A stretch of DNA of 64,000 bases from Chryseobacterium gleum (lineage in GTDB: Bacteria; Bacteroidota; Bacteroidia; Flavobacteriales_C; GCA-002722245): the NCBI GenBank assembly GCA_945871895.1, contig CAMBXP010000003.1:1160-65159 (forward strand). Direction: 5' to 3'. A program made the position numbers and the translations under genes. Shown one piece after another: positions 14,208 through 37,708 of the stretch (positions are counted from its first letter, which is position 1; each line of letters begins with the position of its first letter). The notes under the pieces are model-generated. The model was not told the DNA's origin and searched no databases. It saw only the letters and a list, made by a program, of their open reading frames with translations.

Positions 14208-14894
14208 GTGCAATACAAAAGAAAAATACCAATTGGGTTTATTATCTTGTTTTTATGTTTCGCCATTTCTAATGCTGGGGCACAAAGAATTGTGCCTGGT
14301 TACCTAGGTAAAAAAAATATTGTTTTTGGAAGTGGCAAAATTCATTTACTAACGGCCTACAATTATGTATTGGGTGCTGATGTCGTTCAGCCTGCCCTCT
14401 GCAAGAGGTCTTTGACATGGGATGTAGGTGTGCAGCGAGTGATTGGTCGCTCGGGAATGATGGGCGCTTCTTTCTCGTATTTTACTAATGATGTTTTTAG
14501 CGCAGTAAGCGATATTTATGAGGCGTCACATTACTCGGGCTATGATTTAGGCGTTCAGTTTCGCTCCTATTATTACCGTTCAAAAGGAAGTATCGCTCCT
14601 GTTGGAAGACATTTCAGATACAATCTTCTGTTGAATGCTTACACATTGAATACCGATGCTAATAATGCGCTAATTGGCAAAACTACAGAATTAGGATTTG
14701 GTTTGGGAGCCGGAAATTCGAGGGTTTTGTATGATAAGTTATGGGTGGATTACGGTTGGGAGTTTAATGTCCTTATCAATGTTTACGATCAGCAAGATGT
14801 GGTAAGAGGTTTTGACTATACTGCCCAGGCGCGTGCAAACATACGAAGAATGGCGCTTATTACATTTAAGATGAATTTTGGTTATTTGTATTGA
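14208..14894 (+). CDS. hypothetical secreted or outer-membrane protein
   Basis: Signal peptide (FIILFLCFAISNAGAQ), beta-rich sequence and a C-terminal aromatic residue. Confidence 0.4.
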   Translation: MQYKRKIPIGFIILFLCFAISNAGAQRIVPGYLGKKNIVFGSGKIHLLTAYNYVLGADVVQPALCKRSLTWDVGVQRVIGRSGMMGASFSYFTNDVFSAVSDIYEASHYSGYDLGVQFRSYYYRSKGSIAPVGRHFRYNLLLNAYTLNTDANNALIGKTTELGFGLGAGNSRVLYDKLWVDYGWEFNVLINVYDQQDVVRGFDYTAQARANIRRMALITFKMNFGYLY

Positions 14895-14895
14895 T

Positions 14896-15714
14896 TTACA
14901 AAATAGACTGACGCACACGCACCAATTTTTCCAATAAACCTTCCAATAAATCCAGTTGCAACATATTTGCTCCATCTGATTTCGCTTCACTAGGTTTAGG
15001 ATGCGTTTCAATGAAGAGTCCGTCTACACCAACCGCTATACCTGCTTTAGCAATGGTTTCAATTAATTGGGGTTTGCCTCCAGTTACGCCACTGTTTTGA
15101 TTGGGTTGTTGCAAGGAATGTGTTATATCAAGCACTACAGGGTGACCGAATTCTTGCATTTCGGGAATATTACGATAGTCAACTATCAAATCTTGATAGC
15201 CAAAAGAATTTCCTCTTTCTGTAAACCACACATGTGGATTTCCGCTATCAACAACCTTTTGGGCAGCAAATTTCATAGCGCCCGAGTTAACGAACTGACC
15301 TTTTTTAATGTTCACCACCTTGCCAGTGTTAGCAGCAGCAATCAATAAATCGGTTTGTCGGCAAAGAAAGGCTGGTATTTGCAATACATCAACATATTCA
15401 GCGGCAATAGCAGCATCATGAGATTCGTGAATATCGGTGACGGTAGGAACGCCAAACGTCTCAGATACTTTTTTCAATATTTTAAGTGCTTTTTCGTCAC
15501 CAATGCCTGTAAAAGAATCAACTCGAGAGCGGTTTGCTTTTTTAAATGAACCTTTGAAGATAAAGGGTATTTCTAGTTTGTTTGTAATTTTTACAATACG
15601 TTCAGCTATTTGTAAAGCAATGTCTTCTCCTTCAATGGCGCAGGGACCTGCAATTAAAAAGAAGTTGCCAGATGAAGTGTGTTTTATTTTGGGTAGGTAG
15701 CTGATGTTGACCAT
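14896..15714 (-). CDS. kdsA: 3-deoxy-8-phosphooctulonate synthase (KDO8P synthase)
   Basis: FFLIAGPCAIEGE, KGSFKKANRSRVDSFTGIG and KVVNIKKGQF motifs. Starting at the internal Met (MVNISY...) removes the 34-bp overlap with the downstream GT4 gene; the track ORF extends to 15768. Confidence 0.9.
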   Translation of the reverse strand: MVNISYLPKIKHTSSGNFFLIAGPCAIEGEDIALQIAERIVKITNKLEIPFIFKGSFKKANRSRVDSFTGIGDEKALKILKKVSETFGVPTVTDIHESHDAAIAAEYVDVLQIPAFLCRQTDLLIAAANTGKVVNIKKGQFVNSGAMKFAAQKVVDSGNPHVWFTERGNSFGYQDLIVDYRNIPEMQEFGHPVVLDITHSLQQPNQNSGVTGGKPQLIETIAKAGIAVGVDGLFIETHPKPSEAKSDGANMLQLDLLEGLLEKLVRVRQSIL

Positions 15715-15734
15715 GGTGTTGATAAATGTGTTTT

Positions 15735-16877
15735 TTACTTTTTTTCTTGTAGAACAATTTTGTAGCATTTTTCAGTCTCTTCTACATTTTTTTTCCAACT
15801 AAAGTATTGCAATCTTTTTTGTCCTTCAGATATTTTGTTGGCGATGAATTCTTTGTTTTCTAGCTTGGATAGGGCTTCAATAAAAGAATCTTTGTTTTTG
15901 TTTTCAAAGTATATTCCAGCTTCTCCAGCAATTTCGGGGAAACAAGAACATTGGGTGAGAATGATGGGACAATTGTTTTTTAGCGCCTCAACAATTGGAA
16001 GTCCGAAACCTTCATATTCAGATGGGAAAAGTAATGCTTTTGCCTCTGCATATAATATTGCTAATTCTTCATCGCTAACAAATTTTCGCTGCACAAAATC
16101 AATGATGCCTGCCTTTTTCATTTTTTCCATTTCCTTGGGCGTGTATGGAGATCCGCTGGTGTATAATAGAAGGTCTTTATTTAAAACAGCAGATAATGCA
16201 TCAATCAAAAAATCGAAGTTTTTGTATCCTTCTCTACTTCCAACATATAAAAGATAATTGGTTTTATTTGTTTGGTTGTTAATTTCTTGATGTTCGATAT
16301 CACAGCCTAAATATATGCGGGTTACAATTTTTTCATTTATTTCTGGAAAAAAGTGCAACAAATCCTTCTTGGTATTTGAAGAAACGGTGATGATGTGATG
16401 GGCTTTTCGAATAAGAGCTGCCTTGTTTTTAGCCATTTCTTTGTATCCGCGTTGATTAGGATACAATTCTGGAATCATATCATGTATAGTAATTACCAAT
16501 TTTGTAGAACCCAAATGATCAAGATAGGCAGGGTTGTAAAATGAGGGATGGAATATGTTGTATTTTCCTGATTTTAGCTCGTGAATAACTCTTTTTTCGT
16601 TGCTCCTACGTAGGCTATTTTTTATTCTTCCAAAACTTGATAAATTAAGCGAATTAACAAGGTTATTGGTTTTAGGAAAGTTAAATAAAGCTTGAATTTC
16701 TTTGTTTTTAATGAAATTAGAACCTAGATGTGCTGAAAATTCGTTGTTTTTATTTACGCCTTTTAATACCTCCGTATAGTAACGTGGTATACCGCCAAAA
16801 GCAATTATGTCGAAGATTTCTGTGTCGTATAGAATTTTTGCTTTCGTCATTTTACTCAAAGAGGGATTAAAATACAA
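15735..16877 (-). CDS. glycosyltransferase family 4 (GT-B, GT1-like)
   Basis: EX7E-type C-terminal motif (PSEYEGFGLPIVEALKNNCPIILT). Confidence 0.85.
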   Translation of the reverse strand: MYFNPSLSKMTKAKILYDTEIFDIIAFGGIPRYYTEVLKGVNKNNEFSAHLGSNFIKNKEIQALFNFPKTNNLVNSLNLSSFGRIKNSLRRSNEKRVIHELKSGKYNIFHPSFYNPAYLDHLGSTKLVITIHDMIPELYPNQRGYKEMAKNKAALIRKAHHIITVSSNTKKDLLHFFPEINEKIVTRIYLGCDIEHQEINNQTNKTNYLLYVGSREGYKNFDFLIDALSAVLNKDLLLYTSGSPYTPKEMEKMKKAGIIDFVQRKFVSDEELAILYAEAKALLFPSEYEGFGLPIVEALKNNCPIILTQCSCFPEIAGEAGIYFENKNKDSFIEALSKLENKEFIANKISEGQKRLQYFSWKKNVEETEKCYKIVLQEKK

Positions 16878-16885
16878 CTTGTTTT

Positions 16886-17686
16886 TTATTTTTTTCCAAT
16901 TTCTTTTTGAATATAGGAGAAGTCCTTTTGTAGTAAGCTTTTTTTGTTTTTAAAATTTCTGCCTAAAATTTTGTCTTTATAATGGTGTATTAGAGAATGT
17001 ATTTTCACTGGGTTAAAAGTGAATTTTTTAGGAGTAAGCAAATGCAGGTTGTAGTTGTTGGTGTATAGATTGCAATTGTATTTTTTTGCTAAAAATTGCA
17101 GTGATTTTAGCGAGTACAAAGAGATGTGTTGTCCGGTTTCTGGGGCAAAGTACCACCAATCAGAAATTTTAGTGATGTTATTGTTGGGTTGTAATTCTGT
17201 TGTGAAAAGCACAGATGAAGATCGCTTAAACATTTTGTCGATCTCTGTTAATGGATTATCTAAATGTTCAAAAACTTCAAAAGTAGTAAGCAATTCAAAT
17301 TGTTTTTTTTCATCGAAAGAGGAAGTGTCGAAATAGTTGGCAAAAATATTCTGACAATACGGGTCTTCTACATAGAATTTAAAACCTTTGTCTCTCATTA
17401 TTCTCACAAATAAGCCATACCCGCCACCGTAGTCGATGAAATCACCTTTATCATTAAAACTAGATTGCACAATCGATGAAACGACTTCTGATAAAGAGAT
17501 ATTCCTTGTGACATAACCAATATCAAGTGAAGTAATTGCGTTACTGTAGGCTTCATTTAACCAATAAGGTTTTTCTGTTTGTATAAATTCACACTGAGTA
17601 CATTTGTGATATTTCACTTGGTGTTTATTCATTACTAAAGTAGTGAATAATAGCTTTGTTTCGCTGTTACAGATATTGCAATTCAT
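16886..17686 (-). CDS. class I SAM-dependent methyltransferase with N-terminal zinc ribbon
   Basis: CxxC...CxxC (MNCNICNSE...CTQCEF) and a methyltransferase motif I-like FIDYGGGYGLF. Confidence 0.65.
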   Translation of the reverse strand: MNCNICNSETKLLFTTLVMNKHQVKYHKCTQCEFIQTEKPYWLNEAYSNAITSLDIGYVTRNISLSEVVSSIVQSSFNDKGDFIDYGGGYGLFVRIMRDKGFKFYVEDPYCQNIFANYFDTSSFDEKKQFELLTTFEVFEHLDNPLTEIDKMFKRSSSVLFTTELQPNNNITKISDWWYFAPETGQHISLYSLKSLQFLAKKYNCNLYTNNYNLHLLTPKKFTFNPVKIHSLIHHYKDKILGRNFKNKKSLLQKDFSYIQKEIGKK

Positions 17687-17785
17687 AGCATCAAACTTAA
17701 GTGATTCTCCTCATTTTATCAATTTTAGCCGCAAAGTTTTATAAATTAGTATAAGTAAGTGCTATGTTTATGTTAATTTCGAAAA

Positions 17786-18757
17786 ATGCATGAATCTTTA
17801 AAAATATCTATCATAACCCCGTCGTTCAATCAAGGACATTTTATAGAGGAGACAATACAGTCTGTTGTTCAGCAGAATTATGCCAATATAGAATATATTC
17901 TAATGGATGGCGGTAGCAAAGACAATACGGTTGATGTAATTAAGAGATACGACTCTCAAATTACTTACTGGGAAAGCAAAAAAGACAAAGGTCAGTCGGA
18001 TGCCATAAATAAAGGTTTGGCGAGAGCAACTGGTGATATTGTGGCCTGGTTGAATAGTGATGATATGTACACTGAAAATGCTCTTAAAAGAGTAGCTGCT
18101 ATTTTTACAAAATATCCAGAAGTAGATGTGGTATATGGAAACGTTTGGCAATGTTATCCCGATAAAACAGAAAAACATATCAACGTTAAATTCAATCCCA
18201 AGCATTTCCTTGCAGGTGTAAATATGCATCAACCTTCTGTTTTTTGGCGAAGAAGAGTGCATGATGAAGTGGGTTTTATTGATGAAAGTTTATATTATAC
18301 TATGGACTATGATTTGTGGTTAAGGTTGTTTTACAACTATAAATCCTACAAAACAGAGACTATCTTAAGTAAGTTTCGTTGTCATGAAGACGCAAAGACA
18401 AGTAAAAATCCTAAGGGGATTTATATGGATTATAGGAAGTGTATATCAAGATTTTTTCGTTCGGCAGGTTTCGATAAACATATTTCGGTTTTGCGCGCAC
18501 TTAAAATTTACGATTCCCATGAAACCACAAGCTATACTATTAAGCAAGAATTTACAGAAACAGCAAAGCAGCAAATTATTGATGAATATATTTTTAACTG
18601 CGGAGTGCAAGAGTATTCCTTTGGAAATGTATCGTCGGCAAATAAAATATTGAATTATTGTCTTACATCTTCTTATAAAAAACAAGCCCGCCGTTTCATG
18701 CTGAAAAATAATTTAGGAGTAAGAAAAATGCTTAATTTATTTAAGAAAGAAGCTTAG
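17786..18757 (+). CDS. glycosyltransferase family 2
   Basis: ISIITPSFNQGHFIEETIQSV...ILMDGGSKDNT...WLNSDDMY (DxD). Confidence 0.85.
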   Translation: MHESLKISIITPSFNQGHFIEETIQSVVQQNYANIEYILMDGGSKDNTVDVIKRYDSQITYWESKKDKGQSDAINKGLARATGDIVAWLNSDDMYTENALKRVAAIFTKYPEVDVVYGNVWQCYPDKTEKHINVKFNPKHFLAGVNMHQPSVFWRRRVHDEVGFIDESLYYTMDYDLWLRLFYNYKSYKTETILSKFRCHEDAKTSKNPKGIYMDYRKCISRFFRSAGFDKHISVLRALKIYDSHETTSYTIKQEFTETAKQQIIDEYIFNCGVQEYSFGNVSSANKILNYCLTSSYKKQARRFMLKNNLGVRKMLNLFKKEA

Positions 18758-18786
18758 TTTACTTGCTTTTTTCGGTGAAATGTTTG

Positions 18787-20091
18787 TGTGAACTTGCAAC
18801 AAAAAATGGGACAAAAAGTTAAGCGACATTTTTAAGATTCATTAATTGTTCAAATTCTACGATTGTTAAATTACCTAAAGCCGAGTGTCGTCGGTTTCTG
18901 TTATACCAAGTTTCAATCCACTCAAAAATTGATATTGCAGCTTGTTCTCTGTCCATGTAACGATTTCTATACACCAACTCAGTTTTAATAGTTTTAAAGA
19001 AGCTTTCGGCCACAGCATTATCCCAATACCCGAAAACTTTGTTTTCTCCTCTTAATATCAAATCTTTTCTGCTCATGCTTCTTTCAACGCACTTGTAGCT
19101 TGCTAGCAACTTAGCAAAAACGTGACAAGCATACTGAACGCCTCTATCGGAATGAAAAATCAAAGCGGAGGATGGTGGCCGATTTTTCACAGCCATTCTC
19201 CAAGCCGCAATGCAGGTATTTTCCGCACGTAAATTACTGCTAAGCACCCAACCCACTGCTTTGCGATCGCACAGATCTGGGATGATAGTTAAATAAAGCC
19301 ACCCTTTACCAGTTCTTATGTAAGTAATATCTGCTACCCACACTTGTCCGCTGTTTTCGGCGCTGAAGTTTCTATCCAACTTGTTTTCTACTGCAGGATA
19401 TTTGTGTTTTGAATTGGTGGTAACCACAAACTTTTTAGAGCGAACAGCCTTGATGCCGTTCTCTTTTTCATCAATCTAGCTACCCGAGGTCTTGATACAT
19501 CAAGCCCTCGTTTTCTTAGCTCTTCAGTCATTCTCGGACTACCATAACTAGCCTTGCACTCCTGATGTATCCGTTGAATTTCGGCTACCAGCATACGGTT
19601 CTCACCATCGCGTTTTGAAGGAAGATAATTTCTCATTCTATAATATCCGCTTTTACTCACTTTTAAAACTTTACACATTTTCCCAACTGGAAATTCCCGC
19701 TGATGGTCTTTTATAAACTGGAAGATTTCCTGTCGCTCACGGAGAAGATGCTCACGGCCTTTTTTAATATGTCGCGCTCCATCTTTACATCGGCCAGCTC
19801 TCTTTTTAGTCTGGCCAATTCTTTTTGCTCCTCTGTAAGTTGTTTTTTACCATTGCCGCTAAATGCTAGCGAGGATTTAAATTTTGCTCATGTCGCCAGC
19901 GGTAGATGAATTTTAGCAATATGCCTAACTCTCGTGCAATCTCTTGAACACTGCCTCGAACTTCGCTTAATTCAACTGCTTTTTGTTTGAATTCTTTGCT
20001 GTAAATTTTTCTTTCTTTTTTCATTTTATTAAGGTATTGATTTGTTTCAATTTACCCTTAACTTAGTATCCAGTCAAATGTAGCAAGTCCA
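18787..20091 (-). mobile_element. IS3-family insertion sequence, degenerate (frameshifted orfA and orfB)
   Basis: Imperfect terminal inverted repeats: TGTGAACTTGCAACAAAAAATGGG (18787-18810) against the reverse complement of 20070-20093 (CATGGACTTGCTACATTTGACTGG). The length of about 1.3 kb fits IS3. Confidence 0.6.
18819..20024 (-). pseudogene. IS3-family transposase OrfAB, disrupted by two frameshifts beyond the programmed one
   Basis: OrfA MKKERKIYSKEFKQKAVELSE... hits a stop after EQNLNPR, then resumes in another frame ([48 protein letters not shown]). The slippery A_AAA_AAG is retained at 19758-19764. The OrfB DDE core (HSDRGVQY...) is broken by a frameshift near 19440-19470 (LMKK|ENGIKAVRSKKFVVTTNSK). 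Confidence 0.8.
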
Positions 20092-20253
20092 TGAGTTAGT
20101 TGCAGCAAAATTAGAATTTTAAATGAAGATACAAAGTATAGCAAATTGTGTGGAAATTTAAATTATCAAAATACTATTAAGAAAAAATTCAGATGTTTGC
20201 ATCTATGAAAAGTAATTTCTTACTAATCCGATAAAAGAATTCAACCCATTTAA

Positions 20254-21165
20254 TTGATGAACAATAGCCTTTTCTTTACCATTGTAATTCCAACTTATAA
20301 TAGAGGTAAGTTAATTATTGATACTCTTGAAACAGTTCTAAATCAAAGTTATCGCAATTTTGAAATAATCATTGTCGACAATTATTCTACTGATAATACC
20401 GATGAAATTCTTAAACCCTATGTAGATAACGGTTTAATTCGCTATATTAAGCACGATAAGAATTACGAGAGAGCAAAATCGCGCAATACGGGTATGCAAA
20501 ACGCAAAAGGTGATTTTCTAACCTTGCTCGATTCAGATGATTTTATGTACGTTGATTGTTTGAAAGATGCTGCAGCATATGCTTTAAGTAATCCTGATAT
20601 AAAAGTTTTTCAAAACAAATACGAGTTGGTGAATGATAAGAAGGAAAAAATTTATTCTTACGCATTTCCATCTCTCGACAATCAATTTAAGGCTTTGTGT
20701 AGCGGTAATTTTATGGCATGTATTGGTGGTTTTTTGCACAAGGAAGTATATACTAAAATTCAGTTTGATACTACTCGAGAACTTACAGGATCTGAGGATT
20801 ATGAATATTGGTTTCGCGTTTTTGCTAAGTATAAAGTGGGTAGAATCGAGAAGGTGAATTCGGGTGTTTTACAGCATGAAGGCCGATCGGTGAACAATCA
20901 AGCCTTCGACTTAATGCTGCAACATAAAGATTATATCGTAGCGGTAATTCGCCGTCATTCAGCTGTAAAAGAAAAGTTTGAAAAGTATATTCCCCGTTTT
21001 GAGGCTTCCTTTTTGATTTATGCTGCAATTAAAGCTAATCAGTTTTTTTTGTTTAAAAGGGCTCTCTCTTTATTGCTGCTGGCTACTAAGGCGGATTTTA
21101 GTGTTTTGATGAGCAAACGATTTATTAGAGTATTTCAAATTGCTCTGTTTAGATTGAAAAGATAA
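20254..21165 (+). CDS. glycosyltransferase family 2
   Basis: FTIVIPTYNRGKLIIDTLETVLNQSY...IIVDNYSTDNT...LLDSDDFM (DxD). Confidence 0.85.
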   Translation: MMNNSLFFTIVIPTYNRGKLIIDTLETVLNQSYRNFEIIIVDNYSTDNTDEILKPYVDNGLIRYIKHDKNYERAKSRNTGMQNAKGDFLTLLDSDDFMYVDCLKDAAAYALSNPDIKVFQNKYELVNDKKEKIYSYAFPSLDNQFKALCSGNFMACIGGFLHKEVYTKIQFDTTRELTGSEDYEYWFRVFAKYKVGRIEKVNSGVLQHEGRSVNNQAFDLMLQHKDYIVAVIRRHSAVKEKFEKYIPRFEASFLIYAAIKANQFFLFKRALSLLLLATKADFSVLMSKRFIRVFQIALFRLKR

Positions 21166-21237
21166 TGACTAGGAGAGTTCTATAAATTACATTGTTGATA
21201 AATACTTATACCAACTTATTGATAATCATACTAATAA

Positions 21238-22241
21238 ATGCTTATCCGCAAACATACCTAGAATTTTGAGCTAATGCAATTGTTGCTCTATCAAACAAGC
21301 GTTCTCCGAAGTTCCTTCTATTTAATTTGTAACAGAATTCGTCGAGATAAAGCTGTAGATATTTCCCTTTAATTTTATGGTATACGCCAAGCAGATTTCT
21401 TTTCACATTACTTATTGCAATATGAACCCATCGCAATGTTGTGGCAGTAGTTTCGTTGGTTGATTTTTCTGTAATATGGGTTTCTACATACTTGGCGATA
21501 TCGATATAACTCGTGCTTTTGTCGGAAAAAACAATGCTCTTTTCATCAAAACTTTTCTCTATCATTTCGTTTACGTTTTCAGATTTGTGAGTTGTCAAAA
21601 CCTTCATTTTAAAGTAGCGACATTGCTTACTGATTGTTCCTTTTTCTAAATCCTCTAAAGGTGTGGATTCAGCCATTACCGCTACGTTTTGTTGTTTTCT
21701 ACTTCCTTTGCCGCGCTTGTTTGGCGTTGATTGCGTTTTAGATGTTGCTGTCTCAATATAGGCTTCATCAAATTCAATCATACCTGTTAATGAATACCGA
21801 TCATCTCTGTTGCCCATCGATTCTCGAATTTTATGCATCACCCGCCAAACACTTTCATACCGACTGTGACCAAGCTGCGTTTGTAGATCCTTGGCTGATA
21901 TTCCTTTTTTAGTGAAGCTCATGAAGGCAATCGATAAATACCATTTGTGAAAAGGCAACTTTGAACTTTCCAATATTGTTACACTTCTTAAGGTTGTTCT
22001 AAATCCGCAATGAACACATTGCCACTGCCTTTTCTTGAGTTGCCATCTGTGTTCTTGCCTTTCACATTTCTTACAAATAACACCTTCTTGTTCTCTCGTT
22101 GTTTTGAAATCCAGTCGGCAACTTTGCTCATCTGGAAAGGTTTTTAGGAATTCTAAGATTTTCATATCGCTTTATTTTCTAACAAATAAAGCCCCTCACA
22201 CCGCAATGGATTTACGGTGAGGTATGTTTGCGGATAAGCAT
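21238..22241 (-). mobile_element. IS1595-family insertion sequence, apparently intact
   Basis: Perfect 22-bp terminal inverted repeats: ATGCTTATCCGCAAACATACCT (21238-21259) and AGGTATGTTTGCGGATAAGCAT (22220-22241). They bracket a single transposase ORF. Confidence 0.85.
21242..22165 (-). CDS. IS1595-family transposase
   Basis: N-terminal zinc ribbon (CKKCERQEHRW...WQCVHCGFRTT) and a DDE domain (FDEAYIE...). The gene lies wholly inside the IR-bounded element. Confidence 0.85.
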   Translation of the reverse strand: MKILEFLKTFPDEQSCRLDFKTTREQEGVICKKCERQEHRWQLKKRQWQCVHCGFRTTLRSVTILESSKLPFHKWYLSIAFMSFTKKGISAKDLQTQLGHSRYESVWRVMHKIRESMGNRDDRYSLTGMIEFDEAYIETATSKTQSTPNKRGKGSRKQQNVAVMAESTPLEDLEKGTISKQCRYFKMKVLTTHKSENVNEMIEKSFDEKSIVFSDKSTSYIDIAKYVETHITEKSTNETTATTLRWVHIAISNVKRNLLGVYHKIKGKYLQLYLDEFCYKLNRRNFGERLFDRATIALAQNSRYVCG

Positions 22242-22244
22242 TAA

Positions 22245-23169
22245 AAAAATGAAACTACACCGCTAAAAAACACTTTATTTGATGAACAAAATTCCATAGC
22301 GCTTCTATCAGAAATAGGCAATCCCCTGGAGATGGTAAGCAAGGCGATAGATTTTGAAATGTTTCGTACAACATTAGAAAATAAATTACTGAACACCAAT
22401 AAAAAAATAATGCAGGCGCAAAGCCTTTTGATGTAGTGTTGATGTTTAAGATTGTAATTTTAAAACGTTATTATGGGCTTGGCGATAAACAAATAGAATA
22501 GCAAGTTATTGATAGAATTAGTTTTAAGAATTTTCTTGGCTTAGAAACAGGCGATAAAATACCCGATGAAAAAACCGTGTGGGCATTCAGGGAATCATTA
22601 ACAAATGAAGGGTTTGTAGATGATTTGTTTAATCAATTTAAAAATTATTTAGAATCGAAAGAATTAATTTTTAGCGCAGGACAATTAGTAAATGCAAGTT
22701 TTACAATAGCTCCACGACAACGCAATACAAAAGAAGAAAATGAAAAAGTAAAAACGGAGAAGGTGATGATTTGTGCAACGATGAGCCACACAAAAAATGT
22801 CATAAAGATATTGATGCTCGCTGGATACAAAAAAATAAGGAAACATTTTATGGATATAAAAATCATGCAAAGGTGGATACCAAAAGCAAATTTATAAATA
22901 CTTATGTTGTTGCAGCCGCATCATCGAATTACTCGCAGGCATTGGGAGGATTATTGGATAAAAAAGATGAACAAAAAAATAGTAATGAAGAAAAATTAAA
23001 AACAAGAGCAAGAGTTGTCTGCCAGTTGGCGGATGGATTTATGGAGCAAAGCATGAATGGATTATTTATACGCTCAGTTGGAATAGTAAGAGCAACCGGA
23101 ATAATAGGACTTATCAATTTAACATACAATTTATTTAGGTATGAGCAAACTCTAAGATTAAAAATTTAA
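22245..23169 (+). pseudogene. IS5-family (DDE_Tnp_1) transposase remnant with several frameshifts and stops
   Basis: Three-frame translation gives KNTLFDEQNSIALLSEIGNPLEMVSKAIDFEMFRTTLE / AKPFDVVLMFKIVILKRYYGLGDKQIE* / VIDRISFKNFLGLETGDKIPDEKTVWAFRESL / DIDARWIQKNKETFYGYKNHAKVD. The remnant directly abuts the IS1595 right inverted repeat. Confidence 0.75.
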
Positions 23170-23340
23170 CAACCTGATAGATAGATATATAGATATATAA
23201 AATCATGCGGTGGTAAGAAAAAAATATTGTATTTTTGAAAAAAAAGATCACAAAAAATCGATTAACAGGTGCTTCGATTTTTATTCAAATCTTTAAAAAT
23301 GAATTTTTAGAACCCACCACTATTGAAAATTTAAATTAAG

Positions 23341-24267
23341 TTGAATATGCCTTTAGCTCCAATTCTACTATTTGCTTTCAAACGATATGAGCATACTAAA
23401 GCAACTTTAGATGCTTTGAGAAAGAATTATTTAGCAGATCAAAGTGAACTTGTTGTAGTGTTGGATGGCGCTCGAAACGAGTTGGAATTTAAAGAAGTGC
23501 AAAAAGTGAAGGAGCTTGTGCTGAGCGAGCATTGGTGTGGAAAAGTAGAGCTGATAGCACGAAAGGAAAATAGAGGTCTTAATGAGAATTTTTTTGATAC
23601 TATTGCTGAAGTGTTAGCAAAACACAACAAGATTATTGTTCTTGAAGATGATATTTGCGCTGCTCCTTATTTTTTGAAATACATGAATGATGCTCTGGAC
23701 CATTATGAAAATGAAAAAAAAGTGATGAATATTTCTGGTTTTGCATTCAACTGGAAAACTAAGTCCCTGCCCGAGTCCTTCTTTATTAAATGCAGCAGCA
23801 CCTGGGGATGGGCAACTTGGAAAGACAGATGGGATTTGCTGATTCGTAATCCAAAAATAATCTACGATGAAGTTCAGAGAAGCAATCTTAAGTTTGACTT
23901 CACTCAGCGCGAAACGGAAAATGATTATTTTGAGCAGCTGGAATTAGAAATTGAGGGTAAAAAGAATATTTGGGATATTAAATGGTATGGCACTTTAATG
24001 TTAAATGATGGTTTGTCACTTTACCCTAGAAAAAGTTTGGTGGAGAATATAGGTTTTGATGGCTCTGGAACTCATTATACAGCAAATGTTGTGGGGCATA
24101 AAATTGAACTTGAATCTGATAAAATAAATGACTTTCCTTCCTTAATTGAAGAAAATGTTGAGGCAAGAAAAGCAATAGGAGCTTACTTTAAGTCTCTGCA
24201 ACCTACTTTTTTTGATAAGGCCAAATACAAGCTAAATCTATTGAAAGCTAAGTATTTCGGAAAATAA
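23341..24267 (+). CDS. GT-A fold glycosyltransferase, GnT-I (GT13)-like
   Basis: APILLFAFKRYEHT...IIVLEDDICAAPYFLKYM resembles the EDD motif region of GnT-I-like transferases. Confidence 0.45.
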   Translation: MNMPLAPILLFAFKRYEHTKATLDALRKNYLADQSELVVVLDGARNELEFKEVQKVKELVLSEHWCGKVELIARKENRGLNENFFDTIAEVLAKHNKIIVLEDDICAAPYFLKYMNDALDHYENEKKVMNISGFAFNWKTKSLPESFFIKCSSTWGWATWKDRWDLLIRNPKIIYDEVQRSNLKFDFTQRETENDYFEQLELEIEGKKNIWDIKWYGTLMLNDGLSLYPRKSLVENIGFDGSGTHYTANVVGHKIELESDKINDFPSLIEENVEARKAIGAYFKSLQPTFFDKAKYKLNLLKAKYFGK

Positions 24268-24424
24268 AATTATCGCATTTTCCCTATTTTCTTTTATATT
24301 CGCATCGCTTTAATCGTAAAATTTTGTCGATGCAAACAGTATTAATCATAGATGCTACGGGGCTTTGGACTAAAAAAATTGTTCGCCCAATAAACAGCAT
24401 TTCTAATTCTTCTTTCGCATCAAT

Positions 24425-25096
24425 ATGATTATTCAACATGCGCTCATAATGGCTGCGGGAAGAGGTATGCGAATGATGCCTTTTACCGAAAATATGCCCA
24501 AAGCAATGGCTCCTTTAGCAGGGACTACGCTTATTGCCAATGGTATCGACAAGCTTAAAAAACGCATTCCCAATATTCATATCACTGTAGGGTATAAGGG
24601 CTCTATGTTGGCTTCTCATGTTATAGAACATGATGTGAGTTCTGTTCTAAACACCGAAGGAAAAGACAATTCGTGGTGGATTTACAATTCTTTGATGAAG
24701 AATTTAGATTTTCCCATTTACGTGCTCACCTGCGACAATGTAATTGAACTCGATTTCGATTTAATGGAGAAAGATTACATCGCTGCTGGTAAACCCGCAT
24801 GTATGGTGATTCCAGTGAAGCCTATTGAAGGTTTAGATGGAGATTTCATTTTTCACGAAAATCAGTGTATCACTGAACTTTCAAGAACTAAACCCTCTAA
24901 AATGTACTGTTCGGGAATTCAAATTCTCAATCCGAAAAAAATAAACGAAATCACTCAACCTGCAGATAATTTCTACAATGTATGGATGCAGTTGATTGAG
25001 TTGAAGCAATTGTATTGCTCTAATATTTATCCAAAACAATGGTACGCGGTTGATACCGTAAACCAGTTGGAAGCTATCAATAAATTACATAAATAA
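24425..25096 (+). CDS. sugar-phosphate nucleotidyltransferase (LicC/MobA-like NTP-transferase fold)
   Basis: LIMAAGRGMRMMPFTENMPKAMAPL matches the nucleotidyltransferase G-rich loop. Confidence 0.65.
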   Translation: MIIQHALIMAAGRGMRMMPFTENMPKAMAPLAGTTLIANGIDKLKKRIPNIHITVGYKGSMLASHVIEHDVSSVLNTEGKDNSWWIYNSLMKNLDFPIYVLTCDNVIELDFDLMEKDYIAAGKPACMVIPVKPIEGLDGDFIFHENQCITELSRTKPSKMYCSGIQILNPKKINEITQPADNFYNVWMQLIELKQLYCSNIYPKQWYAVDTVNQLEAINKLHK

Positions 25097-25097
25097 G

Positions 25098-26933
25098 ATG
25101 TGCGGCATTGCTGGATATTTCTCGGTAAATAAAGTTTTTTCTCCCGAGGAACTTCCTGCAATGGCTAATGCAATTGCGCACCGCGGACCAGATGCCGAAG
25201 GCGTTTATTCGCATGGTAGTGTTGGTTTGGCCCATCGCCGCTTAAGTATTGTTGATTTGAATCCGCGTTCCAATCAGCCCATGACTTCCCAAGATGGAAA
25301 TTTTGTGATTTGCTACAACGGCGAAGTATACAATTTCCCTGAACTCGCTACCAAATACAATCTCACCCTTCGCACTCACTCCGACACTGAAGTTATACTA
25401 GAATTATTCGCTAAAGTCGGTCCTTCTTGCGTGAACGAGTTTAATGGCATGTTCGCCATTGCTATCTATAATATTCAAAAAGAAACATTGCATATTTTTA
25501 GAGATAGAATAGGAATTAAACCTGTTTATTATTTTTACGACGGACAAAATTTTGCTTTTGCCTCTGATATTAAATCCTTATTTACATTGGATTTTGTGAA
25601 GAAACAAAAGGCAACCAATCTTAATGCTGTAAAAGAGTTTTTGTATCTGGGTTATATTCCACACCCAAACACGATTTACCAAAATATAAACAAATTTGAG
25701 GCGGGTTCATTTGTTAAGATCGACAAGAATGGCGCTAAATTCGAAACGTATTGGGATTTAAATAAAAAGGTGAAATCTTCAGTGAAATCGAACGAAGCTG
25801 AAGCTAAAATAGAGCTTAAGTCATTAATTGAAGCTTCCGTAAAAAGAAGAATGTTCGCCGATGTTCCTTTCGGTACTTTCTTAAGTGGAGGCACCGATTC
25901 AAGCGTTGTTACTGCTGTTGCACAAAGTCTATCTACAGAGAAAATAAATACTTTTTCCATTGGCTTCAAAGAGGCCAAATACAATGAAGCCGAGCACGCT
26001 AAAGCAGTAGCGAATCATTTAGGCACCAACCACCACGAATTCATTGTATCACAAAAAGATGCATTAGATTTATTTCCCGAAATCATTGGTACTTACGATG
26101 AGCCTTTTGCCGATTGTTCTAGCATTCCAACCATGTTGGTTTCTAAATTAGCTCGTCAGCATGTGAAAATGACTTTGTCTGGCGATGGGGGAGATGAACA
26201 GTTTTTAGGTTACGGATTTTACAACTGGGCAAATCGTTTGAATAATCCTTTAATCAAGACTTTTAGAGGAGCTATTTCACCTTCATTAAAGTTGATGGGC
26301 AATCGTTTTGAACGTGCTTCTCATTTGTTCGATTATCCTACCGATAGAAAGAAAAGTCATATTTTCTCACAAGAACAATACTATTTTTCTTTGGCCGAAA
26401 TTGATGATTTGATGCTGGGTAAGCAGTCGATCACATTGAATGAAAATTTCGATTTACAAAGAAAATTGAGTCCGGCAGAAGAACAAGCATTCTTTGATTT
26501 ACATTACTATTTACCCGATGATTTATTGGTGAAAGTTGATAAGGCATCAATGAAATACGGATTAGAAGCTCGTGTTCCATTACTAGATCATACCATTATT
26601 GAATTCTCCTTAAATCTTGATGAAAAACTCAAGGTGAAAGACGGAGTGTCTAAATATCTATTGAAAGAAGTTCTCTACGATTACGTACCAAGAGAATTAA
26701 TGAACCGTCCGAAATGGGGATTCAGTATCCCTTTAAACGATTGGCTTAAATCTGATTTGCGTGAATTGGTAGAACAATATACTTCCAAAGAAGTGATTGA
26801 AGCTGCTGGATTTGTTGATTACAAAAAAGTTCAGCAATTAAAAGCTCAATATTTTGGAGGAAAGGATTATTTGTACAATAGAGTATGGGCGATAGTGTTG
26901 TTGCATAATTGGTATTCCCTCTCGAGGAGTTAG
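25098..26933 (+). CDS. asnB: asparagine synthase (glutamine-hydrolysing)-family amidotransferase (AsnB/WbpS-like)
   Basis: N-terminal MCGIAGY nucleophile and PP-loop SGGTDSS. The gene sits in a glycan cluster, as polysaccharide-amidating AsnB homologues do. Confidence 0.85.
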   Translation: MCGIAGYFSVNKVFSPEELPAMANAIAHRGPDAEGVYSHGSVGLAHRRLSIVDLNPRSNQPMTSQDGNFVICYNGEVYNFPELATKYNLTLRTHSDTEVILELFAKVGPSCVNEFNGMFAIAIYNIQKETLHIFRDRIGIKPVYYFYDGQNFAFASDIKSLFTLDFVKKQKATNLNAVKEFLYLGYIPHPNTIYQNINKFEAGSFVKIDKNGAKFETYWDLNKKVKSSVKSNEAEAKIELKSLIEASVKRRMFADVPFGTFLSGGTDSSVVTAVAQSLSTEKINTFSIGFKEAKYNEAEHAKAVANHLGTNHHEFIVSQKDALDLFPEIIGTYDEPFADCSSIPTMLVSKLARQHVKMTLSGDGGDEQFLGYGFYNWANRLNNPLIKTFRGAISPSLKLMGNRFERASHLFDYPTDRKKSHIFSQEQYYFSLAEIDDLMLGKQSITLNENFDLQRKLSPAEEQAFFDLHYYLPDDLLVKVDKASMKYGLEARVPLLDHTIIEFSLNLDEKLKVKDGVSKYLLKEVLYDYVPRELMNRPKWGFSIPLNDWLKSDLRELVEQYTSKEVIEAAGFVDYKKVQQLKAQYFGGKDYLYNRVWAIVLLHNWYSLSRS

Positions 26934-26979
26934 GGGTGTGACATCTTTAGCAGGAATAATAATTTTAAACTATTGCCTT

Positions 26980-29900
26980 CTATCTATTCACGATAACTTT
27001 AGAAACTACAAAATTATTATCATAATTCACTTTTACAAAATACATATCATTAGCAAAAGTATTTAAATCGATTTCTGTGTTGTAAGAAATATTTTTTTTC
27101 TCCATTAATAGCTTTCCAGTTTTATCATAAACCAAAATAAAATTAGGAATTTCCCTTTCGCTAATCAGCGTGAAAACCCCATTGCTTGGATTAGGAAAAA
27201 TACTTATTCTTGGAGAGATGTTATCATTTATAGAGCTTGGACTGCAAGGCAATTGATTTTGGTTAGTGTAAATTGTATTGAATACAGAGTTAGTTATTAT
27301 TGCGGGGTTAAAGTCGAAATATATTTCTGCTTTATTTCTAATTTGATTTCCCGTGTTTAAATTTTGTTTTGGTAGGATCTCATAAACCACATAGCCATGG
27401 CTCATTGGTTCATTATGAGTACTATCGATTAACATAATATTATCGAATGCAAATTTAATCACATTGCCTGCAAGAACTTGTGTATACATAGTATCGCTGC
27501 TTGAGAGAACATGAAGTGAGTTTAGGTCCAAGTTAGCATCAATCGAATCGAGCACTGAAATGTTAATGGCTTCTGCATTACCTGTATTTTGGAAATGAAC
27601 AGCATAGGTTAACTTTTGATCGGGTTTGATATATCCCTCTTCACATAAGCCGGAAGGATCTACCGAAATGTAATTTGGGTCGTAACCATTAATCACTGTG
27701 AAGATGTATTGGTGGAAATTATTTGTAGGATCAGTATCGCCAATATTTGGATCAATGAGGGTTCTAATTATAACGCTGTCTCCTATTTTAGCTAAATTAG
27801 ATGTGTGTACATCAATAACGGCGTTAAATGCCTTACCTTCAAATTGTAATTGAGAAAAATTCCAAATTAAAGTATCTCCAATAATATTATTAGGCGCAGG
27901 GAATGCTGTTTGATAATTCAACCACTTGGAAAGAATTAATTTAATTTTTCCGTCTTGAAGCACACAGCCTTCATTAATACCAGTAAGGAATATTTTGGCA
28001 GAAAATCCTTTTCTAAATGAACTTGCGATTAAAGCCGAGTTTAAATCGAAGTTATTCATTTCTTTTGGTTCATTAATTAATAGATAGCTAGTGTCAACAC
28101 AGCCTTTGCTGTCAGTTACTCTGGCGCCGTATATTCCTTTTACAGTGAAAGTTTTTGTTGAATCGCCAACATTACTGTTAAACCAAGTATAGTTGTATGG
28201 AGAATGACCTTGGTAAGCTTTAAGTTTTGCTTTACCCGACACTTGGCAATGAACATCGTCCACTTCCTTAAAAGTTAATGTTAAATTATTGCACGCAGAA
28301 GAGTTGGGATAGCCATTGATACGAGCAATTCGATTGCAACTCTTTCCATTGTAGGAGGTAAATTCTCCGGTGGTCATTAAATTTCCATCTTTCAAAACAA
28401 GCAATGAATTTACTACACTTAATCCAGAATAATGTAACATAAACCCCTCCTTGCTTTGGAAAGAGGTGTCAATTAATCCCTGACTATCTATACACACCAG
28501 TTTGCGTTTATGAATATTGTTAACTGTGGAAAAACTGCCTGCAAGATAAATTCTTCCATCGTCGTTTACATGTATTTGGGTTACGTTACTATCTATTGTT
28601 ACACTAAAAGTAGAGTCAGTAAGTCCACTCGGCATTAATCTAACCACATCATTTTTTGTTGAACTAATTAATATTCTATTTTGTTTGTCTATTTGTATAG
28701 CACCGATGGGTAAGTTTAATAAATTATTGTATTTAAAAGTGCTGTCAATGGTACCATCTTGATTTAACCGGAGTAAATACGAAACATTGTCTTGATTGAA
28801 TTTGGTGAAATCACCACCAACTAATAATTTGCCGTCTTTCTGCAGCTTTATACTTCTCACTACGCCGGAGGCTGCTGAACCAATTAAATAATTATTGTCA
28901 ATAGAGCCATTTGTATTTAAACGAGCTATTTTTCCATCAAAATTACCTTTGACAATGATTTTACCGTCAGTTTGAACTTCTAACCCATAAACACTTGCGA
29001 ATGCACCCGACATGCTTATTTTGTTCTCAAAGGTGCTGTCAGTGGTTCCATCGGGATTAAGTTTAGCTATATATTTTTGATTGGCTGATGAATTCACAGA
29101 AGTAAAAGCCCCACCTATAAGTATTTTATTGTCGGGTAATACTTTAACACAGGAAACTCCAATAACTTGAACATTGAAAGTGTGATCTAAATTTCCGTTC
29201 TTCAACAATCGAATACATGAAGGTATAGTGAGCTGGTTATAAAATCCGTAAGTTGTACTAACCAATACTTTTCCATCATTATGTTCTGCAATATCTGAAA
29301 TGGCCGAAGCTTTGTTAAAGCCGACAAAAATAAATGTAGTATCTGTGCTGCCATCTATATTCAATCTCGACAATCCCTGTATGTTTAAATTATTATATGT
29401 AAATCTATCTCCGCCAATATAAATTTTATTTAAGTGTTCCTGAACAACAAGTATTCTGGAAACATTTTTTGTATTAGTATCGAGCTTAAAAGTAGTATCT
29501 AGTTCTCCAAATTCATTTACACGAACTAATCCATTACAACTAATACCATTGTACTTTTTAAAAAGTCCACAGATATAAAAGTTTTTTCCATCGTTACTTC
29601 TCACATTATCCACATTGTTGTCAGTAACACCGACTTTAAATGAAGAAATAATATTGCCGCTGGTGTCGTACTTCGCAACAGAAGATGGATTTCCTACCAT
29701 GATTTCTCCATTTTGCAACAATAAAAAGTCAGATGGGATGTAACTAATCATTTCAATAGAATGAAATGTATTATCTATACTTCCATTAGGATTCAGCCTT
29801 ACTATTGTTGATCCTTGTCTTACCAATATTTTATCATCTTTTTGGATTTTAATATTAAAAATAGCATCCACTGGAATAAAAGGTATAAAAGAAGTATCAA

Positions 29901-30450: not shown

Positions 30451-30563
30451 GTTTCAGTTATTTTGAGAGAGTTTCGAAGATATGGAATTTTTCTATGTAG
30501 AGAAAACTGTTTACTTTTTGTAAATTGCACAAGTGGTATTAAAAAAATAGAGACCAATACTTT

Positions 30564-31019
30564 ATGCAATCCAAAGCATCAACAGTAGAAGAATATTTAA
30601 AGCTCTTACCCGAAGACAGAATTGAGATTATCACTTCTCTCCGAAAAATCATCCTAAAGAATTTACCTAAAGGTTTTGAAGAATGTATGAATTACGGCAT
30701 GATTGGTTATGTCGTTCCTTTGTCTTCTTATCCCGCTGGATATCATTGCGATCCCAAGCAGCCGCTTCCTTTTATGAATTTGGCTTCGCAAAAAAATCAT
30801 ATTGCCATTTATCACATGGATTTGTATGCCAATCAGGACTTGATGACGTGGTTTCAGCAAGAGTGGAGTAAGCATTCAAAGAAGAAGTTAGATATAGGGA
30901 AAAGCTGCATCCGATTTAAAAAGGCAGAAGATATTCCTTTGGCATTAATCGCTGAATTGTGCTCTAAGGTGAGTCCGAAAGAATGGATCAGTCAATACGA
31001 ATCGGATTTTAAGAAGTAG
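30564..31019 (+). CDS. DUF1801 domain protein
   Basis: Matches the YdhG/DUF1801-like family (EEYLKLLPEDRIEIITSLRKIILKNLP). Confidence 0.55.
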   Translation: MQSKASTVEEYLKLLPEDRIEIITSLRKIILKNLPKGFEECMNYGMIGYVVPLSSYPAGYHCDPKQPLPFMNLASQKNHIAIYHMDLYANQDLMTWFQQEWSKHSKKKLDIGKSCIRFKKAEDIPLALIAELCSKVSPKEWISQYESDFKK

Positions 31020-31022
31020 ACT

Positions 31023-31912: not shown

Positions 31913-31914
31913 CT

Positions 31915-37636: not shown

Positions 37637-37708
<72 letters not shown>

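Follow-up and report, generated by a model that had tools for sequence, protein, structure and literature searches.

Why does a locus for surface-glycan biosynthesis carry three different insertion sequences (ISs) among its genes, and have they switched it, ruined it, or remodeled it? In the window, by which we mean the whole 64,000-nucleotide stretch of DNA analyzed, positions 15.7 to 25.1 kb are read here as the variable core of such a locus, belonging to a lineage of Flavobacteriales from fresh water or groundwater; we give this explanation as a whole, including recombination and four ordered events, a probability of roughly three in four. Conserved kdsA marks the left border of the core and AsnB the right. 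Gene calls were confirmed with Pfam and NCBIfam profiles, and the comparison set consisted of about 20 related contigs (L numbers), all of them metagenome contigs or metagenome-assembled genomes (MAGs). Alignment to these relatives located the junctions of the events either exactly or with a few bases of uncertainty. The features are as follows.

14896-15768, minus strand: kdsA (3-deoxy-8-phosphooctulonate synthase; TIGR01362, 384 bits, cutoff 314)
15735-16877, minus: GT4 glycosyltransferase (Pfam Glycos_transf_1 and Glyco_transf_4)
16886-17686, minus: SAM-dependent methyltransferase (Methyltransf_23, E = 4e-21)
17786-18757, plus: GT2 glycosyltransferase "GT2a" (Glycos_transf_2, E = 7e-31)
18758-18788, minus: scar, 3'-terminal ~10 codons left from a lost AlgX-like (SGNH) O-acetylation gene (alignment to L085)
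18789-20091 (1303 bp), minus: IS3-family element, full-length, inactivated (rve and HTH_21 domains)
20092-20256, plus: native GT2b upstream region, 165 bp (aligns with L086 from 16607 onward)
20254-21165 (also delimited as 20257-21165), plus: GT2 glycosyltransferase "GT2b" (Glycos_transf_2, E = 1e-33)
21238-22241, minus: IS1595-family element, intact (22-nt terminal inverted repeats, 307-aa transposase)
21242-22165, minus: IS1595 transposase (NF033547, 196 bits)
22243-23170 (about), plus: IS5-family remnant, dead (DDE_Tnp_1)
23341-24267 (also delimited as 23347-24267), plus: GnT-I-like glycosyltransferase, GT-A fold, GT13-like (weak Pfam match, AlphaFold model)
24330-24428, plus: scar left by deletion of a sugar 4,6-dehydratase gene of the Polysacc_synt_2 type (alignment to L001)
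24425-25096, plus: sugar-1-phosphate nucleotidyltransferase, NTase (NTP_transferase)
25098-26933, plus: AsnB-type glutamine amidotransferase (Asn_synthase, E = 6e-100, and GATase_7)

What the initial annotation observed is confirmed, and its interpretation is partly supported. By Pfam and NCBIfam its gene and IS calls were essentially right, except for the number of GT2 genes and the description of IS3 as a remnant. Only two genes match the GT2 Pfam model, and the announced three are reached only if the GnT-I-like gene is counted. The GnT-I-like label holds as a fold: the Pfam match is weak (E = 5.5e-4, under the gathering score), the AlphaFold model (pLDDT 92.4) finds its best PDB matches in POMGnT1 and GnT-I of family GT13 (E ~1e-10 to 1e-11), and LEDD (the E..D motif) is invariant in the family alignment. 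The methyltransferase begins with a four-cysteine zinc ribbon (CxxC...CxxC; CNIC...CTQC in the translation). Pfam, run over the window's first 36.7 kb, detected no flippase, polymerase, or initiating transferase, and the chemistry and the acceptor of the glycan are inferred.

The start of kdsA is probably at 15714, because relatives call a protein of 272 aa. The gene is 96.7% identical in nucleotides to that of L086, a near-conspecific, and is the conserved gene that flanks the variable zone on the left; homology to L086 stops at 15708, and neither L086 nor L001 has homology to the window across 15721-17800. The GT4 and methyltransferase genes form a cassette in place of which more distant relatives carry others (DegT, GT4, and an unknown gene in L001; a 146-aa protein, DegT, and GT4 in L086), and the GT4 gene is found in L095 to L097 and L101. 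At the conserved right end, AsnB is 98.3% identical in nucleotides to L086 (dS 0.06). Against L086, dS is 0.03-0.14 for M48, hyp228, kdsA, Fer4, CCG, and AsnB; it is 0.35 for GT2b, 0.62 for the NTase, 2.3 for GT2a, and 2.6 for the GnT-I-like gene, the last two being saturated (dS > 2). Such mosaic divergence is the classic picture for a recombining glycan locus, although some of the pattern could reflect strain-chimeric assembly of metagenomes. The comparison of composition with the rif region that had been proposed earlier gave no evidence of foreign origin: the island is lower in GC than the window (0.34 versus 0.366), but in GC3 its glycosyltransferase genes (~0.30) match rpoB and rpoC (0.305).

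The relatives differ both in gene content between kdsA and AsnB and in IS occupancy, so that the earlier view of a strain-variable, remodeled locus with ISs between glycosyltransferase genes is borne out, and synteny is not fixed. L001 and L084 are IS-free and have GT2a, GT2b, a GnT-I-like gene, the dehydratase, the NTase, and AsnB packed tightly. L086 is also IS-free, with flanks 97-99% identical to the window, an AlgX-like/MBOAT gene pair, and the dehydratase scar. L101, L082, L102, and L104 have the IS5 remnant only; L095, L096, L097, and L100, which are 99.0-99.7% identical to the window over 20090-26918, have IS5 and IS1595 along with the AlgX-like/MBOAT pair; and the window, L088, and L107 have IS3 as well.

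The first of the proposed events would be an internal deletion that took out the sugar 4,6-dehydratase, while the start codon and the translational coupling to the NTase gene were kept. Aligned with L001, the scar shows the 5' and 3' ends of a 319-aa gene (Polysacc_synt_2, E = 6e-56) that is intact in L084. What is left is a 32-codon mini-ORF with the original start and an ATGA overlap with the next gene, and L081, L086, and L095 to L101 show identical spacing. No IS was involved in this loss.

The best NCBIfam match of the neighboring NTase is MurU (65 bits, cutoff 250), and its best PDB match is LicC, only marginally (31 bits); no LicA, LicB, or LicD domain occurs in the locus. The choline-type decoration suggested previously is not supported. 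AsnB-family amidotransferases in O-antigen loci turn uronic acids into uronamides, as do WbpS of Pseudomonas aeruginosa O6 and WbtH of Francisella. AsnB here is likewise a two-domain protein in a glycan locus, with an N-terminal Cys nucleophile (MCG in the translation), but neither a gene for a UDP-sugar 6-dehydrogenase nor any other gene for uronic acids turned up in the locus. Its best NCBIfam match is an XrtA/PEP-CTERM amidotransferase model (514 bits, below the cutoff of 817). An amidated sugar is plausible from this homology.

In the second step, the since inactivated IS5 and a GnT-I-like allele of divergent sequence would have come between GT2b and the NTase, breaking the tight junction of GT2b with the GnT-I-like gene. 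As first described, the IS5 gene is multiply disrupted: its frame shifts twice and is stopped once in frame, and internal segments have been deleted. With 157 bits, the stitched translation clears the NF033581 cutoff of 140. Terminal repeats of IS5 were looked for and not found, and there is no target-site duplication. The remnant is common to L081, L082, and L101, and the window copy has an extra 123-bp deletion between direct repeats AAAAGATGAA. The GnT-I-like allele is 98% identical to those of the same three relatives and 45-50% identical to the same-position gene of IS-free relatives (45.7% for L001, 50% for L086). Compared with L101, identity is 98% for the GnT-I-like gene and 94% for the IS5 remnant beside it, against 87-92% for the flanking genes; identity above that of the flanks indicates that the two spread recently as a cassette.

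The third step would be insertion of IS1595 at the left end of IS5, an end that appears from the alignments to have been lost to it. IS1595 is intact with perfect inverted repeats, as originally stated: 23 nt are perfect in the window copy, but copies 85% identical at other sites end in a 22-nt repeat, ATGCTTATCCGCAAACATACCT, which sets the boundaries at 21238-22241. There is no target-site duplication. The element is absent from L082, L101, L102, and L104 (90-94% identical), which have 30 bp at the site instead.

An intact IS with perfect repeats, whose presence varies among related contigs from consecutively numbered ERZ assembly accessions, is what might be expected if insertion and excision toggled glycan genes reversibly within a clone, and the locus had been called phase-variable. 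In Neisseria meningitidis, IS1301 causes reversible capsule phase variation by entering the coding gene siaA and excising precisely. Both cases involve an IS in a surface-polysaccharide locus, but those of the window lie between genes, two of them (IS3 and IS5) are dead, target duplications are lacking, and the accompanying changes are irreversible deletions. Furthermore, the IS-free site of L082, differing by 30 bp, does not make a simple insertion/excision pair with the window; contigs without IS1595 are 6-10% divergent and not clonal variants; and the IS1595 copy of 99% identical relatives (L095 and L096) is itself frameshifted by a 1-nt deletion. We found no simple-sequence repeat or homopolymer longer than 8 nt and no evidence of an invertible promoter. 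Reversible phase variation is disfavored as very unlikely.

The ISs had also been said to change the promoter context of the glycosyltransferase genes. This applies only to the GnT-I-like, NTase, and AsnB genes, which adjoin GT2b in L001, L084, and L086 and lie 2.2 kb from it in the window; GT2b keeps its native upstream region, which corresponds to a divergent MBOAT/GT2b intergenic region in relatives. For the GnT-I-like, NTase, and AsnB genes, downstream of the ISs, the mode of transcription is inferred. With three ISs, two gene scars, and at least three genes lost relative to relatives, the whole island might be decaying to nonfunction after the break in its operon, with the remaining genes on their way to becoming pseudogenes. 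However, all eight retained genes are full-length open reading frames under purifying selection (dN/dS 0.02-0.18), and this includes divergence since the IS5 insertion: between two lineages that both already bear IS5, the GnT-I-like gene has 13 synonymous and 6 nonsynonymous differences (p = 5e-6). Its pN/pS is 0.09-0.115 (p < 1e-5), with 0.084 for GT2b against L101 and 0.05 for the NTase, and the dehydratase scar retains its start codon and ATGA overlap. General decay is therefore unlikely. The initial wording, decay by three ISs, does not fit: the losses are the AlgX-like/MBOAT pair at IS3 and the dehydratase, and the surviving enzyme genes are intact.

The most recent difference concerns IS3, which stands in place of the O-acetylation pair. 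MBOAT proteins with AlgX/AlgJ-type SGNH partners O-acetylate exported polysaccharides (AlgI/AlgJ/AlgX for alginate, PatA/PatB for peptidoglycan); the relatives' pair at the IS3 site has the same two-component architecture (MBOAT, E = 7e-32; ALGX, E = 1e-9) and is absent from the window genome. In L095, L096, and L097, 2.5 kb with ALGX and MBOAT lies exactly between window positions 18788 and 20090, and L085 is identical to the window up to 18788 and then runs on into the AlgX-like gene, the corresponding gene being called ALGX in L086 and L095 to L097. IS3 is frameshifted, as had been noted, but it is full-length rather than a remnant: both terminal repeats, TGaACTTGCaACA, are present, the programmed A_AAA_AAG slip site is intact, and orfA and orfB have one extra frameshift each. 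The stitched OrfAB scores 373 bits on NF033516.

Conceivably, IS3 entered an ancestral locus that never held the pair, which relatives gained later, since GT2a directly adjoins GT2b with no O-acetylation genes between them in L001, L004, and L084. Two retained flanking fragments speak against late gain, namely, 31 bp identical to the AlgX-like 3' end on one side of IS3 and the 165-bp MBOAT/GT2b intergenic region on the other; moreover, IS3 has no target-site duplication, and not one of the closest relatives (96-99.6% identical) lacks the pair at this site. Late gain is thus exceedingly improbable. In the preferred history, the fourth step would be fixation of a segment in which defective IS3 replaces the pair, a segment that recombination, with one crossover within GT2a, probably brought in. 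That gene appears to be an intragenic mosaic relative to close relatives, with 104 mismatches to L095 clustered in 18256-18703 and 38 to L107 in 17809-18064, tracts that adjoin IS3. IS3 is already decayed although it marks the most recent difference, which requires an extra assumption, either import from another lineage or mobilization of a defective copy in trans.

The clustering in GT2a could also arise if the contig were a chimera of co-occurring strains, and IS copies could be collapsed or misplaced repeats, given that the relatives are all metagenome assemblies and that L088 and L107 share one sample, which might be the window genome's own. However, L088 (2184 bp, 99.95% identical) covers both IS1595 junctions, the long contigs L097, L095, L096, and L100 have the same IS1595/IS5 arrangement, L107 crosses the GT2a/IS3 junction with no mismatch over 18065-19641, and each IS occurs only once in the window. 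Independent contigs thus support three of the four IS3 and IS1595 junctions, although none spans the right IS3 junction (20091/20092). An assembly artifact is quite unlikely.

The locus would have diversified as O-antigen and capsule loci do, with homologous recombination swapping divergent cassettes via conserved flanks and shared genes and with ISs and small deletions trimming the content. In the galactose-initiated O-antigen clusters of Salmonella enterica (groups B1, B2, D1, D2, and D3), forms with and without ISs occur, serial deletions leave gene remnants, an IS remnant lies at a recombination junction, and sequences inside the cluster have diverged far more than housekeeping genes (PMC3715488). 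All four traits are seen here too, but in Bacteroidota instead of Enterobacteriaceae, with different IS families (IS3, IS1595, and IS5), with wzx, wzy, and an initiating transferase missing from the locus and from its immediate surroundings, and with loss of modification or precursor genes (the O-acetylation pair and the dehydratase), not of a polymerase. In the Planktothrix mcy cluster, a transposable element is reported to mark the deletion of biosynthetic genes in some population strains (PMC2464740); both cases are IS-associated losses of biosynthetic genes, but in the window the loss amounts to only two genes (2.5 kb), and the remainder is under selection.

This is an ordinary strain-variable surface-sugar cluster from which sugar-modifying genes were removed via three ISs and two deletions. 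In its gene content, junctions, order of events, and purifying selection it is a well-documented new example of a phenomenon that is itself already known. The predicted phenotype is a glycan without O-acetyl groups and without an amino-dideoxy-sugar branch that would still be made by four glycosyltransferases, methylated, and possibly amidated.

Comparison with relatives shows that the surface-glycan locus running from kdsA at its left flank to the AsnB gene on the right (14896-26933) varies among strains, as the initial annotation had proposed: both IS occupancy and gene content differ across the roughly 20 informative contigs of related Flavobacteriales (L numbers), which were found through a KdsA scan, homologue searches, and contig look-ups. 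The locus combines several glycosyltransferases and sugar-modifying genes with high between-strain variability and conserved flanks. The contigs form a series of five stages, listed here for two GT2 genes, GT2a (17786-18757) and GT2b (20254-21165), a GnT-I-like glycosyltransferase gene (23341-24267), a sugar-phosphate nucleotidyltransferase gene (NTase; 24425-25096), a Polysacc_synt_2 sugar 4,6-dehydratase gene, and an AlgX-like/MBOAT gene pair for O-acetylation.

Stage 1 (L001 and L084): IS-free; GT2a, GT2b, the GnT-I-like gene, the dehydratase gene, NTase, and AsnB, packed so that stop and start codons overlap; in L001, DegT, GT4, and a gene of no known kind precede GT2a.
Stage 2 (L086): IS-free; 97-99% identity to the window in the flanks; a different interior, which has the AlgX-like/MBOAT pair; dehydratase already lost.
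Stage 3 (L101, L082, L102, and L104; 87-94% identical): the window gene order of GT4, methyltransferase, and GT2a, plus AlgX-like/MBOAT and GT2b; IS1595 absent; IS5 remnant longer than in the window; GnT-I-like allele of the window type.
Stage 4 (L095, L096, L097, and L100): 99.0-99.7% identical to 20090-26918 in a single alignment with 0-1 gaps; IS1595 and a shortened IS5 remnant; AlgX-like/MBOAT still present.
Stage 5 (the window): stage 4 minus the 2.5-kb AlgX-like/MBOAT segment, with IS3 in its place.

The dehydratase gene has left a scar in the window at 24330-24428, a 32-codon mini-ORF made of its first 11 and last few codons, with an ATGA overlap with the NTase start.

The IS3 element (18789-20091, minus strand) is full length at 1303 bp and carries HTH_21 and rve domains. 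Its terminal inverted repeats are of the TG...CA type (TGAACTTGCAACA from 18789 and TGTAGCAAGTCCA up to 20091, complementary at 11 of 13 positions), the A_AAA_AAG slip heptamer at the orfA/orfB overlap is intact, and the stitched OrfAB scores 373 bits against NF033516 (cutoff, 160), covering all 369 profile positions. The transposase is not intact: two unprogrammed frameshifts are present, one in orfA near nucleotide 215 and one in orfB near nucleotide 625. Thus, the earlier description of a frameshifted remnant holds for the frameshifts and fails for the remnant, as the element is complete with both ends. The window and L085 are identical up to 18788; from there, L085 runs into the AlgX-like gene at its 3' end, and the window enters the IS3 repeat. 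On the right, homology to L086 and L097 begins at 20090, a few bases from the MBOAT start codon, and spans a 165-bp divergent intergenic region into GT2b, which therefore keeps its own upstream region. The flanking homology at both junctions thus makes IS3 the marker of a deletion of the O-acetylation pair. None of the three elements, IS3, IS1595, and IS5, each present in one copy in the 64-kb window, has a target-site duplication; for IS3, 3 to 4 bp would be expected and the flanks read GTG and TGA, which fits a deletion associated with the IS and not a simple insertion. A candidate 27-bp duplication around IS3, suggested by overlapping blastn matches to L001, was rejected, as its two copies are only ~55% alike and L086 shows that the sequence on the right is native to the intergenic region.

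The IS1595 element (21238-22241, 1004 bp; antisense to GT2b and the GnT-I-like gene) has perfect 22-nt terminal repeats, extending to 23 perfect nt in the window copy. Its ends were set from copies 85% identical at other sites, and these bear out the 22-bp inverted repeats first described. The transposase scores 196 bits against NF033547 (cutoff, 75); its N terminus matches Zn_ribbon_IS1595 below the gathering score (E = 0.0056), with CKKC and CVHC motifs present. Target-site duplications in this family are typically 8 bp; neither the window copy nor five related copies have one. The empty site in L082 has 30 bp that are absent from the window and likewise shows no duplication. The copies in L095 and L096 have acquired a 1-nt deletion. 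Two of the copies with 85% nucleotide identity (L089, 1363-2369; L090, 195-1201) share a right flank, a ParE toxin gene, and differ in the left flank, where L089 has Cas2 with a HepT/MNT pair and L090 has other DNA, which suggests rearrangement at these copies too.

The IS5 remnant (22243-23170) is broken by two frameshifts and one stop and has internal deletions, and its left end in the window has been taken over by IS1595. The stitched translation scores 157 bits against NF033581 (cutoff, 140), covering only profile positions 7-193 of 285, and a search of the longer L082 copy gave no terminal repeats. A 123-bp part of the remnant is kept in L081 and L082 and missing from the window, L095-L097, and L100; the deletion is flanked by 10-bp direct repeats.

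The arrangement is also seen in independent contigs, which cover three of the four IS3/IS1595 junctions. L088 (99.95% identical) covers both IS1595 junctions, L107 covers the GT2a/IS3 junction, and the IS1595/IS5 arrangement is present in the long contigs L095-L097; the right IS3 junction is seen in the window contig alone.

Divergence is unevenly spread across the locus. Relative to L086, six flanking genes and AsnB have dS values of 0.03-0.14. The values are higher for GT2b (0.35), NTase (0.62), GT2a (2.3), and the GnT-I-like gene (2.6, at 50% amino-acid identity). Relative to L101, the GnT-I-like gene is 98% identical, the adjoining IS5 remnant 94%, and the flanking genes 87-92%. Against L095, 104 of 124 mismatches over 4.2 kb lie within 18256-18703, the 3' half of GT2a beside IS3, and against L107 mismatches are confined to the 5' part of that gene. 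These patterns indicate that lineages have exchanged tracts, subject to the fact that the comparators are all metagenome assemblies, in which chimeras can mimic short tracts. Such exchange would explain why a decayed IS3 marks the most recent difference, the IS3 segment probably having been imported from another lineage. Within GT2a, 17809-18703 shows sharp tracts of ~23% divergence from near-identical relatives, with almost no differences elsewhere; these reflect either intragenic recombination between divergent alleles or a strain-chimeric metagenome assembly.

All of the remaining locus genes are full length, with dN/dS of 0.02-0.18. Between two lineages that each already have IS5 upstream of it, the GnT-I-like gene has 13 synonymous and 6 nonsynonymous differences (pN/pS, 0.115; Fisher P = 5e-6), and it has therefore remained under selection since the IS5 insertion.

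Domain searches back nearly every gene call of the initial annotation, including kdsA, GT4, a methyltransferase carrying a four-cysteine ribbon at its N terminus, the GT2 genes at 17786 and 20254, the IS1595 transposase, the nucleotidyltransferase, and the AsnB-type amidotransferase. The count of three GT2 genes was too high, as only two match the GT2 model. The GnT-I-like label was based on a subthreshold Pfam match: the protein scores 19.3 bits against GNT-I, under the gathering score of 25.4, which does not place it in the family by sequence; many of its homologues scored PF00535 (GT2) instead, and a PDB sequence search returned chance matches only. The label is nonetheless backed by fold. 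With 51 homologues as input, AlphaFold gave a model (pLDDT, 92.4) whose top Foldseek matches in the PDB are 5ggf, 5ggi, and 1fo8 (E = 4e-11 to 1e-10; TM, ~0.5; identity, 13-14%); the best-matching proteins are human POMGnT1 and rabbit GnT-I. As modeled, the protein has a GT-A fold nearest to GnT-I/POMGnT1. The acidic metal-binding motif of GnT-I is EDD; here residues 99-102 are LEDD, with E100 and D102 invariant in the 51 homologues. The family has more than 6,500 database relatives, mostly annotated as GT2 or hypothetical.

The choline decoration proposed for the right end of the locus is not supported. LicC (1jyk) is only marginally the best of the weak PDB sequence matches of NTase (31 bits, ahead of GlmU at 28 and MurU at 25.5), and the best NCBIfam model is MurU (65 bits, below the cutoff of 250). 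LicA is a choline kinase, LicB a transporter, and LicD a phosphocholine transferase; licA, licB, and licD are absent from the Pfam matches of all genes in the locus and its flanks. AsnB begins with MCGIAG, providing an N-terminal Cys nucleophile, contains GATase_7 (E = 8e-39) and Asn_synthase (E = 6e-100) domains, and scores 468 bits against TIGR01536 (cutoff, 267), which identifies it as an AsnB-type glutamine-dependent amidotransferase. By analogy, amidation of the glycan by this homologue is plausible, and it may take the form of a WbpS/WbtH-like role on a uronic acid; a literature search on AsnB homologues in O-antigen amidation gave nothing useful.

No Wzx, Wzy, or initiating phosphoglycosyltransferase domains were found in ORFs of at least 150 aa across 1-36.7 kb or at the corresponding loci of L001, L004, L086, and L095, and no ligase was found in the locus, its surroundings, or the equivalent loci of relatives. 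A 312-aa protein of L001 has no Pfam match. The kdsA neighborhood and the periplasmic-type O-acetylation pair of relatives fit an exported, lipid-linked glycan. A more novel reading has two parts; it is unlikely, and we give the whole odds of roughly one in eight. First, the glycan made beside kdsA would be Wzx/Wzy independent, for example, a lipooligosaccharide outer core, and its O-acetyl and amino-dideoxy-sugar state may be diversified through IS-scarred cassette exchange in natural freshwater populations. Second, the intact IS1595 might now serve as a promoter source for the GnT-I-like gene, NTase, and AsnB via an outward TAtgTTTG in its terminal repeats.

The promoter part is weak, since the motif occurs at chance level and purifying selection on these three genes was already present in IS1595-free lineages. 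Seven Bacteroidetes -7 boxes were found in 13 kb of AT-rich DNA, where about 8 would be expected; one lies at 23230, 110 bp before the GnT-I-like gene begins, and there is one in each IS1595 repeat. These last are the outward-facing TATGTTTG at 22223-22230 and 21249-21256, which matches the -7 consensus TAnnTTTG and which related IS1595 copies carry as TACGTTTG. A sigma-70 promoter scan was uninformative (45 sites versus 45.1 expected), and there are no terminator-like sites on the plus strand from GT2b to the GnT-I-like gene.

We found no evidence for the phase variation that had been suggested for this locus, and no reversible switch. The longest repeat tracts in the island are homopolymers of 8 nt and one (CT)4; tract lengths do not differ from those of L097 or L100, with 0 gaps in the alignment. 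No invertible segment was found, and no inverted repeats surround the intergenic regions except for the IS ends.

The locus lies in chromosomal DNA of a Flavobacteriales member. To its left are LptD, an amidase, and MlaD together with kdsA; to its right are ORFs at positions that the initial annotation had named tuf and rpoB/rpoC, beside a tRNA cluster. In a species-level collection, the nearest genomes are Flavobacteriales MAGs from lake water and groundwater, with a top KdsA identity of 92%. GC content is 0.34 in the island versus 36.6% in the window. GC3 of the glycosyltransferase genes (~0.30) equals that of the genes so named rpoB and rpoC, and composition is therefore no argument for foreign origin. 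An Rfam scan returned tRNAs only, all outside the island; megablast of the whole island against a plasmid collection gave no match, and no identical proteins are on record for AsnB and GT2a. Beside kdsA, 14208-14894 encodes a 228-aa protein without a Pfam or NCBIfam match that is kept in all relatives examined (46-98% identity). Between hisS and an ABC ATPase gene, 1233-1754 encodes a protein with an ORF6N domain, which is associated with phage or mobile elements. A XerC/XerD-type tyrosine recombinase gene (35814-36689) lies ~500 bp upstream of a four-tRNA cluster (37196-37709) and could be either the border of an integrated element or a housekeeping Xer gene.

A second strain-variable segment (26919-31077) lies directly to the right of the island. 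In the window it encodes a 1156-aa DUF5122 beta-propeller type IX secretion cargo protein (26980-30450, with a Por_Secre_tail domain) and a DUF1801 protein; L095, L096, and L101 have six other genes there, including an M43 peptidase with Por_Secre_tail, and L081 has nothing. Its left breakpoint is 15 nt before the AsnB stop, so that AsnB has 611 aa in the window versus 616 aa in relatives. To the right of this segment, 31346-34448 is kept in all close relatives and contains conserved genes without known function (188 and 223 aa) adjoining a NodU/CmcH-type carbamoyltransferase gene (621 aa), followed in L101 by a weak SxtJ-like gene; these could form a further glycan-modification module.

Salmonella O-antigen clusters occur in forms with and without an IS, contain remnants from serial deletions, and include an IS remnant at a recombination junction (PMC3715488). 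The locus described here resembles them in its IS-occupancy forms, its gene remnants, and the IS at a recombination site. It adds a new, well-resolved case from another phylum and reveals neither a new mechanism nor a new kind of element. Overall, it offers a base-resolved view of how surface-glycan loci diversify in uncultured freshwater and groundwater Flavobacteriales, an understudied group: flanks that are 97-99% identical enclose an interior with exchanged cassettes, scars of lost genes, and three ISs that differ in age. Co-occurring strains are predicted to differ in phenotype through loss of O-acetyl groups from the glycan and of an amino-dideoxy sugar, a difference that could matter for recognition by phages and grazers.
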